From: a phage
Direction: 5' to 3' (one strand)
DNA: 39,466 nt
Sequence record: PZ445457.1
Part shown: piece by piece, positions 7,499 through 39,466 of the stretch
Layout of the letters: every line of letters begins with the position of its first letter
How positions within the stretch are numbered: the first letter of the stretch is position 1
The notes under the pieces: model-generated
Databases searched by the model: none
What the model saw: only the letters and a program-made list of their open reading frames with translations
Told to the model about the DNA's origin: nothing
Program-made: the position numbers and the translations under genes

Positions 7499-9466
7499 AT
7501 GGCTAACAAGATTCGTACTGTGATGACTTACCCGCTGAATGGTGCCGTGAACTTCACGATTACCTTTGATTATCTGGCTCGTAAGTTCATCCAAGTGACA
7601 CTTATTGGTAAAGACCGTAAAGAACTGGTTCTCAATCAGGACTACCGTTTTACCAGTAAGACTCAAATTACAACTACTCGTGCGTGGACTGCCGCTGATG
7701 GCTACCAGATGATTGAGATTCGTCGATTCACTTCGGCTACCGACCGTCTGGTTGATTTTGCTGATGGCTCAATCCTCCGTGCATATGACCTGAACATCTC
7801 GCAGATTCAAACCCTGCACGTTGCCGAAGAAGCACGAGACCTCACTGCGGATACCATTGGTGTCAACAATGATGGTCACTTAGATGCTCGTGGTCGTAAG
7901 ATTGTCAACTTGGCGTATGCCACAAATGACTATGATGCTGTTCCTTTAAAGCAGGTTAAAGAGCGTGAATCCTCTGCATGGAATGCTGTAACAAAGGCTA
8001 ACGAACATGCCGACCGTTCCAATAAGGAAGCAAACCGTTCTCGTGATGAGGCCAACCGTGCTCAACGTGAAGCTGACCGCTCAACTCAACAGGCAGGTGT
8101 CTCTACGCAACAAGCAGTTGAGTCCAAGAAGCAAGCTGACCGTTCCAACTCTGAGGCCAACCGAGCTAAAGGTTATGCTGAAAGTATGACCGCAAGTGTC
8201 GCTGAGGCTAAGAAACAGGCTGACCGTTCCAACTCTGAGGCTAATCGTGCTCGTGATGAGGCCAACCGTGCTGCTGGAGAAGTGACTAAAGCTGCCGCTG
8301 AGGTTGCCAAGGCTGCTGCACACGTTGAGACCGCTAAGGGCCATGCTGACCGAGCCAACACTGAGGCAAACCGCTCTAAGAGTGAAGCTGACCGTGCAAA
8401 GACCGAGGCTGACAAGTTGGGGAACATGAACTCACTGGCTGAGGCTATTGACAGGGTTGAGGCTCCTGATGTTTACTTCAAGAGGAATGTTATAGCCGGA
8501 CACAGATTGGAGACTTCTGGAGGCTCACATCTTCACCCTAATGAGATTAAATTGGTTAACAATAAATCTCCAGACCAGCACTTCATTGTACAAGCGTGGG
8601 GAACTGGAGATCCTAATAATAGGGCGCAGGTGTTTGAGGTGAAGGATAACTTGGGTCAATACGCATTCTATATCCAGCGCCAGAAGAAGACAGACCAAAC
8701 TTGGCAAATGAGTGTGAACGGCTCTCTATCCTGCCAAATAGTAAATTCAAACTTGGGAATAGAATCCACTAACGAGAAGGCCACTGTCAAGTTTAAGACG
8801 TGGGGTGGTGGGTGGGACCAATGGACTGGTGTTGGTGTCCCTAACGTGCAGCATGACATTGCGGGACAGGGAGATGTAGCGTATCTCCTTGAGAGGGCAA
8901 CGATATGGGGCAAGGAACATTTATATGCAAAGGCATTATATAACAACGGCAATGGGGCATCATTCTTCATTCGCCACTACCTGAGAGGGGCATACTTTGA
9001 CCTACGGTCCGATGGCACTCTTATCAGTTCGACTGGTTGGAATATCCCAGCCGATGGCAACCTGTACATCAGGAAGTATGGGCTGTACATTGACGCGTGG
9101 GTCAACAAACGCCTTGGCGAACATGCCTACAACAAGAGCGAGACAGACAACCTAGTGAATGGTCGATTGACACAAGCACAAGCTGATGGGCGATACGTCC
9201 GTAAGAATGCTGGGTGGGCTGAAGTGTGGGAAGGAAGTGCTGGAGGTGGTGTCTCGGTGGGTCTCTCTCAAGATGTCCGCTGGAGAACCATCTGGATTCA
9301 AACACAAGGTCGATGGAACCCTGTTCAAATTGGGGACAATGGGTCTTACTATATCTCATCGAACGGAGGTTGGCTACAGTTTACCATCTCGAATAACGGT
9401 AGAACATTCCGTAACGATGCGGATAGAGCCTCTGTTCCTACGAGAATCTTGGTTCAAAACCAATAA
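7499..9466 (+). CDS. gene 17: Tail fiber protein gp17 (655 aa); conserved N-terminal tail-attachment domain, expanded repetitive shaft, divergent C-terminal receptor-binding region
   Basis: N-terminal ~150 aa and C-terminal tip (WEGSAGGGVSVGLSQDVRWRTIWI...SNGGWLQFTISNNG) match recalled T7 gp17; middle contains ADRSNxEANRA repeats. Confidence 0.95.
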   Translation: MANKIRTVMTYPLNGAVNFTITFDYLARKFIQVTLIGKDRKELVLNQDYRFTSKTQITTTRAWTAADGYQMIEIRRFTSATDRLVDFADGSILRAYDLNISQIQTLHVAEEARDLTADTIGVNNDGHLDARGRKIVNLAYATNDYDAVPLKQVKERESSAWNAVTKANEHADRSNKEANRSRDEANRAQREADRSTQQAGVSTQQAVESKKQADRSNSEANRAKGYAESMTASVAEAKKQADRSNSEANRARDEANRAAGEVTKAAAEVAKAAAHVETAKGHADRANTEANRSKSEADRAKTEADKLGNMNSLAEAIDRVEAPDVYFKRNVIAGHRLETSGGSHLHPNEIKLVNNKSPDQHFIVQAWGTGDPNNRAQVFEVKDNLGQYAFYIQRQKKTDQTWQMSVNGSLSCQIVNSNLGIESTNEKATVKFKTWGGGWDQWTGVGVPNVQHDIAGQGDVAYLLERATIWGKEHLYAKALYNNGNGASFFIRHYLRGAYFDLRSDGTLISSTGWNIPADGNLYIRKYGLYIDAWVNKRLGEHAYNKSETDNLVNGRLTQAQADGRYVRKNAGWAEVWEGSAGGGVSVGLSQDVRWRTIWIQTQGRWNPVQIGDNGSYYISSNGGWLQFTISNNGRTFRNDADRASVPTRILVQNQ

Positions 9467-9510
9467 TGGAATACAACGAGACCACGGATGGCTGACATTA
9501 GGAGGACATA

Positions 9511-10519: not shown

Positions 10520-11077
10520 ATGTCTACTGTAAACTCAAGAACCCGTACAATCTGGACTATCAATGGTCGCTCACCGGACAGCCGCGATATGTACGACCGA
10601 AACAATGTTGGCCTTCGTGTTGGGCGTATCGACATCCCGGCTTCAGAAATGGTCAAGGTAGATGGATACGACAAGGTTGAGTATGTGGTCCAACTGAGTG
10701 ATGGTACAACCGAGCAACATGCTACCTTTGAGATCCTGATGTCCACTTGGGGTGGCTCCGTCGAGTCTAAACCGGGTAGTGGGTTCATGACGGTATTCCT
10801 GAATGAGCAAAGCGCTGAGCGGCTCGGTATGGTTCGAATCGACGTATACAAAGAGTGGACTGGTGCCGACCCTGAACCAGAAGGTGGTTCTGCTTCGTTA
10901 GTTAGTGCAGCGCTTTCTGCGTCTGATAGTGCATTTGGTACACAGTTCGTGGATAGCGAAGGAAAGAGCGCTTCCGTTATGTTCCAACCTAGTAACATCG
11001 ACGGGGCTGTATCTAAGACCGACACTATCAAGGCTCTTGAGAAGCGAATCGCTGCTTTAGAGAAACCTACCGAGTAA
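10520..11077 (+). CDS. Hypothetical protein (185 aa), lineage-specific insertion between 18.5 and terminase large subunit; no recognisable motifs
   Basis: Strong RBS taaggag 7 nt upstream, natural-looking composition, no Cys/His motifs, C-terminal amphipathic helix KTDTIKALEKRIAALEK. No T7 counterpart at this position that I recall. Confidence 0.7.
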   Translation: MSTVNSRTRTIWTINGRSPDSRDMYDRNNVGLRVGRIDIPASEMVKVDGYDKVEYVVQLSDGTTEQHATFEILMSTWGGSVESKPGSGFMTVFLNEQSAERLGMVRIDVYKEWTGADPEPEGGSASLVSAALSASDSAFGTQFVDSEGKSASVMFQPSNIDGAVSKTDTIKALEKRIAALEKPTE

Positions 11078-13982: not shown

Positions 13983-14021
<39 letters not shown>

Positions 14022-24528: not shown

Positions 24529-26338
<1,810 letters not shown>

Positions 26339-26403
26339 TAGCAATTGGGTAGACCAGTGGGAAGAACTGAACGAGCGCGAACAGGCGCTCTACAGAAAGC
26401 AAT

Positions 26404-26426
26404 CAATACAACTCACTAATGGGACA
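26404..26426 (+). promoter_or_regulatory. Phage RNAP promoter (phi4.3-like; -11 A variant)
   Basis: caatacaactcactaatgggaca, followed by a 5' stem-loop (acaga-cac-tctgt). Confidence 0.6.
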
Positions 26427-26469
26427 GACACTCTGTTCCCACTTATCAATCCACTTAAGGAGAATCACA

Positions 26470-26682
26470 ATGTTTAAATTCATCAACACTCTTGGTAAGC
26501 TGGTAGTTAAAATGTACTTCCGTGAAGCTAAACGTCTGAACGACAAGGCACGTAAGGATGCAGAACAGGCTCAACGCTTGGCGAAACAGGCACGTCTACT
26601 GTCTGAAGATGCAAGTGCTGGCGTTACGTCTGCTGCTAAGATTGCAGCGAAAGCAACCGACCTGAACAAGTTCTTCCTGTAA
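26470..26682 (+). CDS. gene 4.3: gp4.3-like protein (70 aa)
   Basis: MFKFINTLGKLVVKMYFREAKRLNDKARKDAEQ... resembles recalled T7 gp4.3; RBS taaggag. Confidence 0.75.
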   Translation: MFKFINTLGKLVVKMYFREAKRLNDKARKDAEQAQRLAKQARLLSEDASAGVTSAAKIAAKATDLNKFFL

Positions 26683-26861
26683 TGGTTACGATAACCCTTG
26701 TGCTCACTCTGATAACTGTGAGCGGACAAACAATAAGTCAAGTCCCTATCACGGCACCAAAGGCTGAGGCATACGAGATATGCGAACAGCAAGGGCGCTC
26801 GTGGTCTAAGGACTTGATGAAGAACGGCAGGGTTTTCACTGCCAACTACAACTGTATCTAA
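26682..26861 (+). CDS. Hypothetical small protein with signal-peptide-like N-terminus (59 aa)
   Basis: ATG overlaps upstream stop (taatg); MVTITLVLTLITVSGQTISQVP... hydrophobic N-terminus then polar domain with 2 Cys. Confidence 0.45.
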   Translation: MVTITLVLTLITVSGQTISQVPITAPKAEAYEICEQQGRSWSKDLMKNGRVFTANYNCI

Positions 26862-26875
26862 TAGGAGTACACAAC

Positions 26876-27178
26876 ATGGCTATTAAATTCCCCGGCAACA
26901 CAATCCGTCTGTCTGACACCATCGACCAGTATGCTCGCCGAGTGCACATCAACGTTCGCAACGGCAAGGTAACTCTGGTCTATCGCTGGAAGGACAGTAA
27001 GTCCACCAAGGCGCACACACAGCGTGTGACTCTGGATGACACACAGGCAGGTCGTCTGCTGGCCTCCGTTGCTGTAGCTGCTACTGTGGCTGTAGGTGAA
27101 GACAATGTTCGTCAGGTTCTGCTGGGTAAGACAGTAGAGTCTGAGGGCAACATGCTTGCTGACAAGTGTGAAGAGTAA
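26876..27178 (+). CDS. Hypothetical protein (100 aa), gene 4.5/4.7 region
   Basis: RBS taggag; ORF in the + strand operon context; no motif recognised. Confidence 0.6.
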   Translation: MAIKFPGNTIRLSDTIDQYARRVHINVRNGKVTLVYRWKDSKSTKAHTQRVTLDDTQAGRLLASVAVAATVAVGEDNVRQVLLGKTVESEGNMLADKCEE

Positions 27179-27180
27179 GA

Positions 27181-27223
27181 GTTAAACTAAAGGGCATCTA
27201 CATGGTGGCCTTCGTGATTAACT
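27181..27223 (+). promoter_or_regulatory. Conserved hairpin element, candidate RNase III site
   Basis: gttaaactaaagggcatctacatggtggccttcgtgattaact; third copy of the element family. Confidence 0.5.
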
Positions 27224-27234
27224 TTTGTATGGAA

Positions 27235-27257
27235 TCTATTCAACTCACTAATGGGAG
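27235..27257 (+). promoter_or_regulatory. Degenerate phage promoter-like sequence
   Basis: tctattcaactcactaatgggag; -10 to +4 conserved, AT-rich upstream part diverged. Confidence 0.3.
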
Positions 27258-27265
27258 AACAACAC

Positions 27266-27445
27266 TATGCGTAATCGTAATGTAATCGAAGCTGAAATCG
27301 CTAAACTGGAAGCTGAACTGGCAGACGTTAAAGAGTATGAATGTGCTCGTGATTCTGCGGTACACATCCTGAAGAACTTAGGGTGGACTCGTGTTCGCGG
27401 TAAGTGGGGTGAAACCTACCAAGGCAAACACCAAGCTGTTCGATA
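27266..27445 (+). CDS. Hypothetical protein (59 aa)
   Basis: MRNRNVIEAEIAKLEAELADVKEYE... short coiled-coil then basic tail; below track cutoff. Confidence 0.4.
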
Positions 27446-27453
27446 AGGACACC

Positions 27454-27666
27454 ATGACCCACATTAAGGCTGGTGACTTCTGCGCATCAACTGAGACATC
27501 CTCTCTATGGTACGTGCGCGCTGTCGCTGGCAACATCTGCTGGTGCTCACGAGTGTCCCGCATTGCTCCTAATGGAACCTTAGTAACCAGCAACAACGTT
27601 GGCATCAAAGCTGAGAACCTGAAGGTAATCAACGTGAAAGACTATATGGGATACACCCATCGTTAA
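27454..27666 (+). CDS. Hypothetical protein (70 aa)
   Basis: Internal ATG of track ORF 27391..27666 preceded by taaggac; immediately upstream of DNA polymerase. Confidence 0.45.
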   Translation: MTHIKAGDFCASTETSSLWYVRAVAGNICWCSRVSRIAPNGTLVTSNNVGIKAENLKVINVKDYMGYTHR

Positions 27667-27685
27667 ACTTTAAGGAGTAAACACA

Positions 27686-29800
27686 ATGTTACTATCCGAC
27701 ATCGAAACAAACGGGTTGCTGCACAACGTTAGTCAATTTCACTGTGCGGTGACTTACGACTACACAACTGACCAGTACATCCGTTACCGACCTGATGACT
27801 TTGGGGCATACATTGATGCACTCGAAGCCGAGGTTGCTCGTGGTGGTCTCATTGTGTTCCACAACGGTCACAAGTATGACGTTCCTGTTATCGAGAAGCT
27901 GGCGAAGCTGATTCTGAATCGTGACGTTAAGTTCCCGAAAGAGAACGTCTTGGACACCTTAGTGATGTCCCGACTGATTTACTCTAACATCAAAGACACT
28001 GATGCTGGTCTGCTGCGTTCTGGCAAGCTGCCGGGTAAACGCTTTGGCTCTCACGCTCTTGAGGCGTGGGGCTACCGCTTAGGCGAAATGAAGGGTGAGT
28101 ACAAGGACGACTTTAAGAAGTCACTGGAAGAGTCTGGTGATGAATACGAAGAGGGGATGGAGTGGCTGTTCTTCAACGAAGACATGATGGAGTATAACGT
28201 TCAAGACGTTGTAGTTACCAAGGCACTCTTTGAGAAACTGTGTAGTAACACTTTCTATTTCCCGAACGAGACACCCGCTGGAAGCACAGAAGCAGAACGT
28301 TTCTGGAACGGTAGCCTTGAGGCTGTCAAGCTGGAACATGATGCTGCTTGGTTGTTAGCTAAGATGGAACGTAACGGTTTCCCTATTGACATCAAGTCCT
28401 TAGAGAATCTTTACGCTGAACTAGCTGGTCGCCGTGGTGAACTTCTGGTCGAACTGACCAACACTTTCGGTTCGTGGTATCAGGCCAAGGGTGGCGTTGA
28501 GGCGTTCCGTCATCCGAGAACTGGTAAGCCGCTCACTAAGTATCCTCGTGTGAAGTATCCGAAACAGGGTGGCATATTTAAGAAGCCAAAGAACAAGAAG
28601 CAACGTGAAGGTCTGGAACCTTGTGAACTGGACACTCGCGATTATGTAGAGGGCGCTCCGTATACGCCTGTAGAGCACGTTGTGTTTAACCCTGCAAGTC
28701 GTGAACACATCACCCGTGTGCTTACCAAAGCTGGATGGGTTCCCGTTGAGTTCACTCCGAGTGGTGCACCAAAGGTAGACGATGAGGTATTGGAACACGT
28801 TAAGGTAGACGACCCGGATGCACAGCGTTGCATTGAGTTGATTAAAGAATACCTTATGATTCAGAAACGTATCGGTCAGGTTGCTGAAGGTGATAACGGC
28901 TGGCTCCGAATGATTGGAGACGATGGTCGTATTCACGGTAGCGTTAACCCGAACGGTGCGGTAACTGGACGTGCAACTCATAGTTTCCCTAACGTGGCAC
29001 AGGTGCCTTCAATCCGTGCTGCATATGGTGAACCTTGCCGTGCTGCTTTCGGTGCCGAGCACAACATGAAAGACGGTAAGCCAGACCCTTGGATTCAAGT
29101 TGGTGTGGATGCGTCCGGCCTTGAGCTACGCTGCTTGGGTCACTTCATGTATCGCTATGATGAGGGAGAGTACGTTGAGACCATCCTCACTGGTGACATC
29201 CATACGAAGAACCAATTGGCTGCGGGTCTACCGACTCGTGACAACGCTAAGACGTTTATCTATGGGTTCCTCTATGGTGCTGGTGCTGCGAAGATTGGAC
29301 AGATTGTTGGTGGTACTGCCGAAGATGGTAAGCGCCTCATCAAGAACTTCCTTGAGCAAACTCCGGCTATCGCTGCGTTGCGTGAAGCAATCACAGGTAC
29401 ACTCGTCAAGGACTCTAAGTGGGTTGGCGGTGAACAGAAAGTAACTTGGAAACGCCGTTGGGTTCGTGGCTTGGATGGTCGTAAAGTACACGTCCGTAGT
29501 CCCCACGCTGCGTTGAACACCTTGTTGCAATCTGCTGGTGCTCTGATTTGTAAACTGTGGATTGTAGAGACTGAGCGTCTGTTACTGGAAGCTGGCCTGA
29601 AGCATGGCTGGGATGGTGACTTTGCGTACATGGCTTGGGTCCACGACGAAATTCAGGTAGCTGCTCGTACACAAGAGATTGCCGATAAGATTGTCAAGTT
29701 GGCACAACAAGCGATGCGTAATGTGGGAGACCACTTTAACTTTAGATGTCAGTTAGATACCGAAGGTAAGACTGGCGCAAACTGGAAAGATTGTCACTAA
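27686..29800 (+). CDS. gene 5: DNA polymerase gp5 (704 aa), family A with 3'-5' exonuclease
   Basis: Exo motif SDIETNGL; thioredoxin-binding region; pol motifs YGFLYGAG and HDEIQV; collinear with recalled T7 gp5. Confidence 0.98.
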   Translation: MLLSDIETNGLLHNVSQFHCAVTYDYTTDQYIRYRPDDFGAYIDALEAEVARGGLIVFHNGHKYDVPVIEKLAKLILNRDVKFPKENVLDTLVMSRLIYSNIKDTDAGLLRSGKLPGKRFGSHALEAWGYRLGEMKGEYKDDFKKSLEESGDEYEEGMEWLFFNEDMMEYNVQDVVVTKALFEKLCSNTFYFPNETPAGSTEAERFWNGSLEAVKLEHDAAWLLAKMERNGFPIDIKSLENLYAELAGRRGELLVELTNTFGSWYQAKGGVEAFRHPRTGKPLTKYPRVKYPKQGGIFKKPKNKKQREGLEPCELDTRDYVEGAPYTPVEHVVFNPASREHITRVLTKAGWVPVEFTPSGAPKVDDEVLEHVKVDDPDAQRCIELIKEYLMIQKRIGQVAEGDNGWLRMIGDDGRIHGSVNPNGAVTGRATHSFPNVAQVPSIRAAYGEPCRAAFGAEHNMKDGKPDPWIQVGVDASGLELRCLGHFMYRYDEGEYVETILTGDIHTKNQLAAGLPTRDNAKTFIYGFLYGAGAAKIGQIVGGTAEDGKRLIKNFLEQTPAIAALREAITGTLVKDSKWVGGEQKVTWKRRWVRGLDGRKVHVRSPHAALNTLLQSAGALICKLWIVETERLLLEAGLKHGWDGDFAYMAWVHDEIQVAARTQEIADKIVKLAQQAMRNVGDHFNFRCQLDTEGKTGANWKDCH

Positions 29801-30055: not shown

Positions 30056-30349
30056 ATGGTTATTACTAAACGTTTTAAAGTATCGTTCGAAATGACTGTT
30101 AAGGTGGACTCTGAGACCGAAGTTATGATTCAGGAACGTATCTTAGACTTGGCTCGCAGTGTACGTGATGGCGAGAAAGTCAGTGCACAGGACAAAGAGT
30201 TGCTTGTTCAGGCTCTGACTTACGGTGCAGATGGTGCTGTGGCCTTTGCTGTTAAGCAGGGTGTCCGTAATGAAATCCGTGAGATGGGCATTGAGCACCA
30301 CGGAGAAGGCATTAAGTTTGCACCAGCAACTATCCGTGAGGTGAAGTAA
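30056..30349 (+). CDS. gene 5.5: gp5.5, H-NS-binding protein (97 aa)
   Basis: M.ITKRFKVSF..T.K...E......ATIREV. resembles recalled T7 gp5.5. Confidence 0.8.
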   Translation: MVITKRFKVSFEMTVKVDSETEVMIQERILDLARSVRDGEKVSAQDKELLVQALTYGADGAVAFAVKQGVRNEIREMGIEHHGEGIKFAPATIREVK

Positions 30350-30558
30350 TGGGTGAATATCTACGTGTACTGGCGGCTATCAAAAGCTGCCCTAAGACCT
30401 TTCAGTCGAACTATGTGCGCAACAATGCGTCACTGGTGGCTGAGGCTGCGAGCCGTGGTCATATCTCTTGCCTATCAGTCGATGGGCGTAATGCTGGCGC
30501 TTGGGAAGTAACAGGCGCTGGTGTCCGATTCCTGAAGAAGATGGGAGGTTGCGTATGA
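30349..30558 (+). CDS. gene 5.7: gp5.7 (69 aa)
   Basis: ...YL.VL.AIKSCPKTFQSNYVRNNASLVAEAASRGHISCL...GGCV nearly identical to recalled T7 gp5.7. Confidence 0.9.
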   Translation: MGEYLRVLAAIKSCPKTFQSNYVRNNASLVAEAASRGHISCLSVDGRNAGAWEVTGAGVRFLKKMGGCV

Positions 30559-37146: not shown

Positions 37147-39466
37147 ATGGCTCTTATTTCACAATCCGTCAAGAACCTGAAGGGCGGTATCAGTCAACAG
37201 CCAGACATCTTAAGGTTCCCCGAACAGGGTTCCGAACAGATTAACGGCTGGTCTTCGGAGACTGAGGGTCTTCAGAAGCGTCCACCTTTTGTCTTCACTA
37301 AGACCATTGGAGACCAGAATGCCCTTGGTGCAAAACCACTCATCCATTTAATCAACCGCGATAGTGTAGAACAGTATTACGTTGTGTTCACAGGACAGGC
37401 AGTCCGAGTGTTCGACCTCAATGGCAAGGAGTACACCGTGAAAGGTGACTTGAGCTACGTGAAGGTAGGAAACCCGCGTGATGACCTGCGAATGGTGACG
37501 GTTGCTGACTATACGTTTATCGTCAACCGCAACATGGTGGTTCGTGCCGATAAGACACCGCTCTATACTCTGAAAGAGAACGGAGACTGTTTGATTAACG
37601 TTCGAGGTGGACAGTATGGGAGAACGCTTGCATTCACAATAAACAACGTCCGTATTGAGTACAAGATTGCACAAGGTGACAAGCCTGAACATGTGCAAGA
37701 GACCGATGCGCAGTGGCTCGTTAAGAAACTGGCAGGTCTTGCTCGTGCTCACGATTCCTTCAAGGACTGGAAGTTCAACGAGGGGTCTGGCTTCATACAC
37801 GTAATCGCTCCGGGCAACAGTCAGATTAACCAGTTGTCCACCGAGGATGGCTATGCTAACCAGTTGATGAACGCTGTGATGCACACAAGCCAGTCATTCA
37901 GTAAGTTGCCAATCGAGGCTCCTAATGGATACACTGTGAAGATTGTGGGTGACACCTCTAAGACTTCCGATATGTTCTATGTCCAATATGACAACGTGAA
38001 GAAAGTCTGGAAGGAAGTCGCAGGATGGGGAGTTGAGAAGGGTCTCAATAGTGCCACTATGCCACACGCTTTGGTCCGTCAATCAGATGGCTCATTCGCT
38101 ATGCAGGTTCTACCGTGGGCACAGCGCTCTTGTGGGGATATGGATACTAACCCAACTCCGTCTATCGTAGACCAGAAGATTAACGATGTGTTCTTCTTCC
38201 GTAACCGCTTAGGGTTCCTCGCTGGTGAGAACATTGTGATGTCTCGTACCTCCAAGTATTTCTCACTGTTCCCTGCGTCAGTGGCTAACCTGTCAGATGA
38301 TGACCCGATTGATGTGGCTGTATCCCACAACCGTATCTCAATCCTGAAGTATGCCGTACCGTTCTCCGAAGAGTTGCTGCTATGGTCTGACCAAGCACAG
38401 TTCGTTCTGTCTGCCTCTGGCATCCTCTCACCGAAGTCTGTAGAGTTGAACCTTACGACTGAGTTCGATGTGTCCGACCGCGCACGTCCTTATGGTGTTG
38501 GTCGTGGTGTGTACTTTGCGTCACCTCGTGCCTCTTATACATCACTGAACCGCTACTATGCTGTACAGGACGTAAGTTCCGTTAAGTCTGCTGAGGATAT
38601 GAGTGCTCACGTTCCAAGCTATATCCCCAACGGTGTGTTCTCCATTCGTGGTTCTGGTACTGAGAACTTTATCTCTGTGCTCTCTGCGAACGCCCCTAGT
38701 AAAATCTTCCTGTACAAATTCCTGTATCTAAACGAAGAGATTACACAACAGGCGTGGTCACATTGGGAACTTGGAAGTAACGTAACGGTTCTGGCTTGTG
38801 ACTCTATTGGCTCAACTATGTACCTTGTGTTGCGCAATCAGTCACACACTTGGATGTGCCGAGCACACTTCACGAAGAACAGCATTGACTTCGATAGCGA
38901 GCCTTACCGCTTGTATATTGACAACAAGATAAAGTATGTGATTCCTAAAGGTGCCTACAACGATGACACTTACACGACCACTATCAAGCCTGTGGACATC
39001 TACGGGATGAAGTATTGGAAGGGTAAGTTCTACATCGTAGCCTCTGACGGTCTGGTATCGTGGTTCGAGCCACCTCGTGGTGGATGGCCTAATGGTGTCC
39101 CTGTGTTGTCAATGAGTGGGAACCGAGAGGGTGAGACTATTTACATTGGGTTGGCTATAGACTTCCGTTATGTGTTCTCTAAGTTCCTCATTAAGAAGAC
39201 CGCCGATGATGGTTCAACAGCTACCGAGGATATTGGGCGCTTGCAGCTTCGCCGTGCGTGGGTCAACTATGAGGACTCCGGTGCATTCACTGTGGAGGTT
39301 GAGAACACCTCTCGACTCTTCAGCTACGACATGGCTGGTGCTCGCTTGGGTTCCAATGCTCTACGTGCTGGTGGACTTAATGTTGGTACTGGTCAGTTCA
39401 GATTCCCGGTTGCTGGCAACGCGCAGTTGAACGAAGTAAGGATTATCTCTGACCACACTACACCGC
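37147..39466 (+). CDS. gene 12: Tail tubular protein B gp12, N-terminal 773 codons; continues at window position 1
   Basis: MALISQSVKNLKGGISQQPDILRFPEQGS.Q.NGWSSETEGLQKRPP matches recalled T7 gp12; no stop before window end; completes at 1..59. Confidence 0.95.
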   Translation, partial: MALISQSVKNLKGGISQQPDILRFPEQGSEQINGWSSETEGLQKRPPFVFTKTIGDQNALGAKPLIHLINRDSVEQYYVVFTGQAVRVFDLNGKEYTVKGDLSYVKVGNPRDDLRMVTVADYTFIVNRNMVVRADKTPLYTLKENGDCLINVRGGQYGRTLAFTINNVRIEYKIAQGDKPEHVQETDAQWLVKKLAGLARAHDSFKDWKFNEGSGFIHVIAPGNSQINQLSTEDGYANQLMNAVMHTSQSFSKLPIEAPNGYTVKIVGDTSKTSDMFYVQYDNVKKVWKEVAGWGVEKGLNSATMPHALVRQSDGSFAMQVLPWAQRSCGDMDTNPTPSIVDQKINDVFFFRNRLGFLAGENIVMSRTSKYFSLFPASVANLSDDDPIDVAVSHNRISILKYAVPFSEELLLWSDQAQFVLSASGILSPKSVELNLTTEFDVSDRARPYGVGRGVYFASPRASYTSLNRYYAVQDVSSVKSAEDMSAHVPSYIPNGVFSIRGSGTENFISVLSANAPSKIFLYKFLYLNEEITQQAWSHWELGSNVTVLACDSIGSTMYLVLRNQSHTWMCRAHFTKNSIDFDSEPYRLYIDNKIKYVIPKGAYNDDTYTTTIKPVDIYGMKYWKGKFYIVASDGLVSWFEPPRGGWPNGVPVLSMSGNREGETIYIGLAIDFRYVFSKFLIKKTADDGSTATEDIGRLQLRRAWVNYEDSGAFTVEVENTSRLFSYDMAGARLGSNALRAGGLNVGTGQFRFPVAGNAQLNEVRIISDHTTP

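Follow-up and report, generated by a model that had tools for sequence, protein, structure and literature searches.

The 39,466-nucleotide stretch of phage DNA in record PZ445457.1, called the window in what follows, carries four short open reading frames (ORFs) between gene 4.3 and the DNA polymerase gene, in the slot occupied in T7 by genes 4.5 and 4.7. This region is very probably the non-essential class II 4.3-4.7 block of a T7-like phage, with the T7 layout, one additional cassette and one broken gene. The ORFs lie on the coding strand at 26682-26861 (59 aa), 26876-27178 (100 aa), 27267-27446 (59 aa) and 27454-27666 (70 aa), and an original prediction, made from the sequence alone, had placed them correctly in the 4.5/4.7 slot. 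It had also described them as four genes that match no T7 protein; this description does not stand, since the 100-aa ORF is assigned to gp4.5 and the last two ORFs to consecutive halves of gp4.7, so that three genes are present, one of them split by a single-base insertion. The first ORF is the only one of the four without a T7 counterpart.

The window is an entire T7-like Berlinvirus genome in circularly permuted form. The gene 12 equivalent, coding for tubular tail protein B, spans its ends (37147-39465, then 3-56), and the terminal-repeat or left-end region of the genome is found at about 13534. In megablast searches the 1.3-kb region matches Salmonella phage vB_CECAV_058 (hereafter CECAV_058) at 99.5% identity and, at 92-96%, the coliphages 285P and BA14, Enterobacter phage PZJ0206, Salmonella phage BSP161 and Erwinia phage FE44; all of these are T7-like members of Berlinvirus (Autographiviridae, Studiervirinae). 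Outside the 4.3-4.7 block, identity between the window and CECAV_058 is only 79-97%.

Each of the four ORFs matches a PHROG family, with E values from 3.3e-24 to 3e-44, and in the first two the codon changes among relatives are only or mostly synonymous; for both reasons the ORFs are considered true coding sequence and not chance frames. The segment would read, in order, phi4.3, gene 4.3, the extra 59-codon cassette, gene 4.5, a hairpin, phi4.7, gene 4.7 and gene 5. All the genes of the region are already annotated in relatives, and the block is an ordinary T7-type one. T7 tolerates deletion of the whole gp4.3-4.7 block (PMC9825161, PMC12664982), and its genes 4.2, 4.3 and 4.7 are listed as hypothetical, with low essentiality (PMC11482910).

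The view that the slot holds four separate novel small genes without T7 counterparts can draw on the plausible starts of all four ORFs and on the many GenBank relatives whose entries say only "hypothetical protein". It can hardly be maintained, however, once gp4.5 and the split gp4.7 are identified by homology; furthermore, the only ORF without a T7 homolog falls in an established PHROG family and has been annotated in several phages, BA14 and 285P among them. With three of the four ORFs explained in this way, the claim of four unknown genes is unsupported. The original prediction had also named homology to replication accessory proteins as an observation that would speak against it; homology searches gave no such resemblance for any of the four ORFs, and this objection therefore does not arise.

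The gene 4.5 orthologue

The 100-aa ORF (26876-27178, + strand), which has an AGGAG ribosome-binding site, is the orthologue of gp4.5, of the Lon/toxin-antitoxin inhibitor family. Residues 8-75 align on profile positions 6-73 of 89 of the Pfam family PF17574, TA_inhibitor ("Inhibitor of toxin/antitoxin system (Gp4.5)"), with 103.9 bits (gathering score 27) and an E value of 5e-30. Over residues 9-75 the product shares 46 of 67 positions (69%, E 9e-33) with T7 gp4.5. The same gene is labelled gp4.5 in 285P, BA14, PZJ0206 and PhiV-1, and comparison with relatives gives from 13/1 to 25/4 synonymous/nonsynonymous codon changes. It also occupies the slot of the T7 gene, preceded by 4.3 and followed by phi4.7 and 4.7; the window protein differs from T7 gp4.5 in being 11 residues longer.

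T7 gp4.5 blocks Lon and so overcomes defence by the toxin-antitoxin system sanaTA (PMC8230891; also PMC11323111); in a knockout screen, gene 4.5 matters more in strains carrying CcdAB, and a RADAR system is weakly countered by both gp4.3 and gp4.5 (PMC11482910). The role of T7 gp4.5 as a Lon inhibitor that blunts toxin-antitoxin defence had been correctly stated in the original prediction (PMC8230891, PMC11482910, PMC11323111), where the slot was proposed as a home for anti-defence factors. This proposal survives only in the ordinary sense that the 100-aa ORF is itself the gp4.5 orthologue; a novel replacement it is not. The window gp4.5 most likely binds the host Lon protease, and labile antitoxins would then most likely no longer be degraded; with the antitoxins spared, abortive infection triggered by toxin-antitoxin systems would, most likely, be prevented. 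The genome of this T7-like phage appears to carry the gp4.5 inhibitor of Lon and toxin-antitoxin systems that is expected of it. Two points count against this assignment of function: the C-terminal 25 residues of the window protein do not align to T7 gp4.5, and Lon binding is assumed from the 69% identity of the core.

Searches of gp4.5 against PDB sequences found no solved structure or mapped interface. The sole matches there were designer 'Cake' repeat proteins, which were rejected for lack of any single significant stretch.

Gene 4.7 and the extra G

The last two ORFs are pieces of a single gene, 4.7 (phrog_4023), the first coding for the N-terminal and the second for the C-terminal part. 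The 5' fragment (27267-27446, + strand) matches phrog_4023 positions 1-50 of 134 (E 6.6e-25); its codons 1-47, up to 27407, are native, and 12 codons in the wrong frame lead from there to a stop. The 3' fragment (27409-27666, + strand) matches positions 50-133 of 134 (E 3.3e-24), and its ORF has 70 aa when read from the ATG at 27454, which corresponds to Met63 of intact gp4.7 (profile positions 66-133), or 91 aa from a GTG at 27391. When the intact gp4.7 of CECAV_058 was used as a tblastn query, residues 1-47 aligned to 27267-27407 and residues 48-132 to 27409-27663, both at 100% identity, the second segment in another frame.

The break maps to a GGGG run at 27406-27409 (+ strand), which is GGG in CECAV_058; over 27230-27700 this one-base insertion is the only difference between the two phages. 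With one G removed, the gene encodes 132 aa identical to CECAV_058 gp4.7, a product that shares 62 of 130 residues (48%, E 3e-35) with T7 gp4.7. Full-length relatives have an intact gene 4.7 in 16 of 16 cases, annotated as a single coding sequence of 399 or 402 nt, compared with 400 nt in the window; the same DNA forms one gene of 399-402 nt in 285P, PZJ0206 and CECAV_058. Nearly all of the 118 database entries for gp4.7 homologs measure 130-148 aa, and the window locus lacks a single uninterrupted ORF of about 130-148 codons. The locus is a disrupted or mis-sequenced member of phrog_4023 and no different family. It has in common with T7 gene 4.7 the phi4.7 promoter and the position just ahead of gene 5, and differs from it in being broken at 27406-27409 into ORFs of 59 aa and of 70 or 91 aa.

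Homologs of the restored gp4.7 bear PF26857 in precomputed annotations. The AlphaFold2 (AF2) model of the restored protein, with a predicted local distance difference test score (pLDDT) of 86, has a long N-terminal helix and a small SH3/KOW-like beta-barrel; the helix/hairpin covers residues 4-48 and the barrel residues 71-121.

Three accounts of the extra G can be considered. A programmed +1 recoding event, either ribosomal frameshifting or polymerase slippage, that restores full-length gp4.7 is very unlikely. It is true that a +1 step connects the two frames and that it falls in a homopolymer; however, the context of the site, AAG UGG GGU GAA, presents no known +1 motif, stop or rare codon, and the shift is found in 0 of 16 full-length relatives and is therefore not a conserved feature. 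A run of four G is, moreover, too short for efficient transcriptional slippage. With no hallmark of programmed recoding at the site and no conservation of the shift, two sources of the split are left: a homopolymer sequencing error or a recent real knockout.

That the extra G is an error of sequencing or assembly at the homopolymer, the phage making an intact 132-aa gp4.7, is an evenly balanced proposition. The change is a one-base length difference inside a G run, the gene is whole in every full-length relative, and the rest of it is 100% identical at the protein level to that of an intact relative, with no further decay. Conversely, per-gene tblastn, used because the whole-genome indel comparison with CECAV_058 was too noisy, identified gene 4.7 as the only frame-split gene among 47 reference genes compared; the assembly is therefore not generally error-prone, and a four-base run is a weak hotspot for errors. 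In addition, T7 gene 4.7 is dispensable, so that a real knockout would be tolerable (PMC9825161, PMC12664982).

A real frameshift, leaving gene 4.7 either without function or translated into a helix fragment and a beta-barrel domain that starts from ATG 27454, is also quite conceivable, at a little under even chances. The break falls in the linker that joins the predicted helix/hairpin and the barrel, a Shine-Dalgarno-like AAGGA lies 5 nt ahead of ATG 27454, and the block is non-essential (PMC9825161). On the other side, the frameshift is unique among relatives, the absence of other sequence decay implies either a very recent event or an error, and the Met63 start is a prediction from sequence. 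Against a broken gene 4.7 it must also be said that the extra G is known from one assembled sequence, which cannot separate error from mutation. IMG/VR was searched for other assemblies with GGGG or GGG, and a contig index for the exact 59-aa fragment; neither search returned a match, and both were uninformative. Either way, what look like two small genes are an artefact, produced when a single base shifts the frame of gene 4.7, possibly through a sequencing error or as a natural knockout.

The peptide FDKDTMTHIKAGD, encoded at 27441-27490, is identical in the window and in T7 gp4.7 despite the overall identity of 48%, and the Met within it has AAGGA upstream. This peptide could be an internal start for a barrel-only isoform, or merely a conserved linker.

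The 59-codon cassette downstream of gene 4.3

The 59-aa gene (26682-26861, + strand) belongs to phrog_6794, which it matches over profile positions 1-60 of 62 with an E value of 1.9e-25. It forms a clean 180-nt cassette between the stop of gene 4.3 and the ribosome-binding site of gene 4.5, and indel comparison revealed that this cassette is absent from T7 and from the Yersinia Berlinvirus PYps50T. T7 and T3 both lack a member of the family. By tblastn it was found in 76 phage records, comprising a subset of Berlinviruses, many Klebsiella Przondoviruses, Kayfunaviruses of E. coli and one Citrobacter phage. Protein searches were sparse: phmmer against 1.8 billion representatives gave three true relatives only, a word-indexed search gave only 3 clusters, and no sequence match was found in Pfam, NCBIfam or the PDB. 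A metagenomic 437-aa protein, P0005, reached an E value of 1e-7 to the ORF through six weak stretches and was judged to be a chance match inflated by repeats; P0005 consists of about seven copies of a 60-residue unit with 'YTVCDGESW'.

The copies in BA14, 285P, PZJ0206 and PhiV-1 have 100% protein identity to that of the window, and the gene is labelled "unknown product" or "hypothetical protein" in BA14 and 285P. Copies within Berlinvirus differ by at most 4 synonymous codons and by 0 nonsynonymous ones; the gene is under purifying selection. Klebsiella, Kayfunavirus and metagenomic members align at 49-57% identity and have the same invariant cysteine pair and N-terminus, and the window copy has no distinguishing features. 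Identity is about 50% for the homologs in Przondovirus, Kayfunavirus and a Citrobacter phage. Residues M1, T3, L6, L8, T9, L10, S14, G15, C34, W41 and C58 of the window protein are invariant in phrog_6794.

A signal-peptide-like N-terminus and two cysteines had been noted for this ORF in the original prediction. Both the cysteines and a hydrophobic N-terminus, MVTITLVLTLITVSGQ, which is followed by V-S-G, are present; the reading of this segment as a signal peptide is instead doubtful, given the conserved N-terminus, the beta-hairpin in the models and the missing basic n-region. Export or membrane anchoring is unlikely. It would involve a signal peptide cut after VSG, a 44-aa mature peptide and a Cys34-Cys58 disulfide, and the product would work at the envelope, perhaps as an exclusion factor or on a target in the periplasm. 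In its favour, residues 2-13, VTITLVLTLITV, are hydrophobic (Kyte-Doolittle 11-residue maximum 2.6), as expected of an h-region, and the V-S-G ahead of Q16 provides the small residues of the -3/-1 rule. A positively charged n-region is missing, however: the window protein has no K or R in its first 26 residues, and 7 of 7 members have no basic n-region before the hydrophobic stretch. Residues 1-25 have 11 invariant columns and residues 26-59 have 6, the opposite of the usual pattern for a signal peptide, and Leu and Thr alternate at conserved positions in a beta-strand-like manner.

Structure prediction points in the same direction. The best AF2 model of the 59-aa protein (pLDDT 91, from a shallow alignment) has a beta-beta-alpha-beta fold in which residues 2-25 form a beta-hairpin packed on the helix; independent BFVD models of the Klebsiella and Vec13 homologs superpose on it with template modelling (TM) scores of 0.98 and 0.88, so that in AF2 and in two BFVD models residues 2-25 are part of a compact fold. 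The protein is probably a beta-beta-alpha-beta mini-domain, as far as these models can be relied on. Because of the missing basic n-region, the conserved N-terminus and the beta-hairpin of the models, a small cytoplasmic protein is favoured with reasonable confidence over an exported one. Two observations run counter to this: the other four AF2 models reach only pLDDT 50-63, and the protein has exactly two cysteines, invariant in all members, which would suit an exported, disulfide-bonded peptide.

The 59-aa gene lies directly 3' of a gp4.3-family gene (phrog_1950) at every locus examined, that is, in the window, vB_Kp1, kpssk3, TUN1, the Citrobacter phage YSYH and Vec13; these six loci represent three genera and an unclassified Citrobacter phage. 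The pair is found upstream of gene 4 in Vec13, a Kayfunavirus, and downstream of it in Berlinvirus and Przondovirus. T7 differs from the window in this respect, since its gp4.3 gene has no downstream partner. In the window, the ATG of the 59-aa gene overlaps the stop of gene 4.3 (TAATG) and has no Shine-Dalgarno sequence of its own; the two features together suggest translational coupling to gene 4.3.

As the 59-aa gene is apparently coupled to gene 4.3 and inherited with it, its product most likely acts together with gp4.3, in what may be host takeover or counter-defence. A stronger version, in which the two genes constitute a functional module that moves as a unit and the 59-aa protein modulates or extends the activity of gp4.3, is improbable at present. 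The target of such a module would be, for instance, a host defence such as RADAR, for which gp4.3 has been proposed as a weak counter; if true, the module would offer a handle on the function of gp4.3. Any link between the two products is weakened by the fact that it derives from position alone. That the 59-aa gene and gene 4.3 stay paired over several genera is one modest lead on gp4.3 function, and their shared position is the only lead on the role of the 59-aa protein itself.

Promoters, hairpin and flanking genes

The 15-nt consensus of the phage RNA-polymerase promoter, RACTCACTAWTGGGA, has 12 matches on the + strand of the window, compared with 0.08 expected by chance. Two exact matches fall in the region: the equivalent of phi4.3, with the core AACTCACTAATGGGA at 26410-26424 (+ strand), and that of phi4.7, at 27242-27256 (+ strand), each in the same position as its counterpart in BA14 and T7. 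Between gene 4.5 and phi4.7 an RNA hairpin is predicted at 27176-27227 (+ strand) by comparative folding, which is its only support. When the sequence was folded singly, the minimum free energy was -17.1 kcal/mol with a z score of only -1.6, which is not significant; the consensus fold is kept in 7 phages, T7 included, with 19 pairs, 6 of which have compensatory changes. The hairpin lies at what we take to be the position of the T7 R4.7 RNase III site.

Gene 4.3 (26470-26682, + strand), just upstream of the stretch covered by the original prediction (26682-27666), encodes a 70-aa DUF5471 protein, matching PF17565 with an E value of 9.5e-21 and phrog_1950 with 1.3e-31, and has 54% identity to its T7 counterpart, gp4.3, of the same DUF5471 (PF17565) family. 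Downstream of the block lies gene 5 (27686-29800, + strand), whose 704-aa ORF encodes a DNA polymerase 97% identical to that of CECAV_058. On the upstream side, a 139-aa ORF at 26058-26477 corresponds to the gene that 285P, BA14 and PhiV-1 have annotated as 4.2; in a different frame from gene 4, whose 3' end it overlaps, it crosses the phi4.3 promoter and stops at 26477, just past the start of gene 4.3 (26470).

Other features of the genome

In the per-gene comparison, no homolog of the 61-aa 'host RecBCD nuclease inhibitor' of CECAV_058 (gene 5.9) was found in the window; there is no room for it, because a gene 5.7-like ORF (30349-30558) overlaps the exonuclease start (30555-). A 185-aa ORF at 10520-11077, between the Rz-like spanin and the large terminase genes, matches phrog_20446 with an E value of 2e-121, and CECAV_058 has nothing at this site. 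The non-coding left-end region contains a perfect (GA)16 repeat at 13988-14019, much longer than the stretch in CECAV_058. Finally, the tail-fibre gene (7499-9470) is matched by the CECAV_058 fibre only in its first 315 residues, where identity is 56%; its receptor-binding C-terminal part shows no relation to that of CECAV_058, which suggests a swap of the host-range module.

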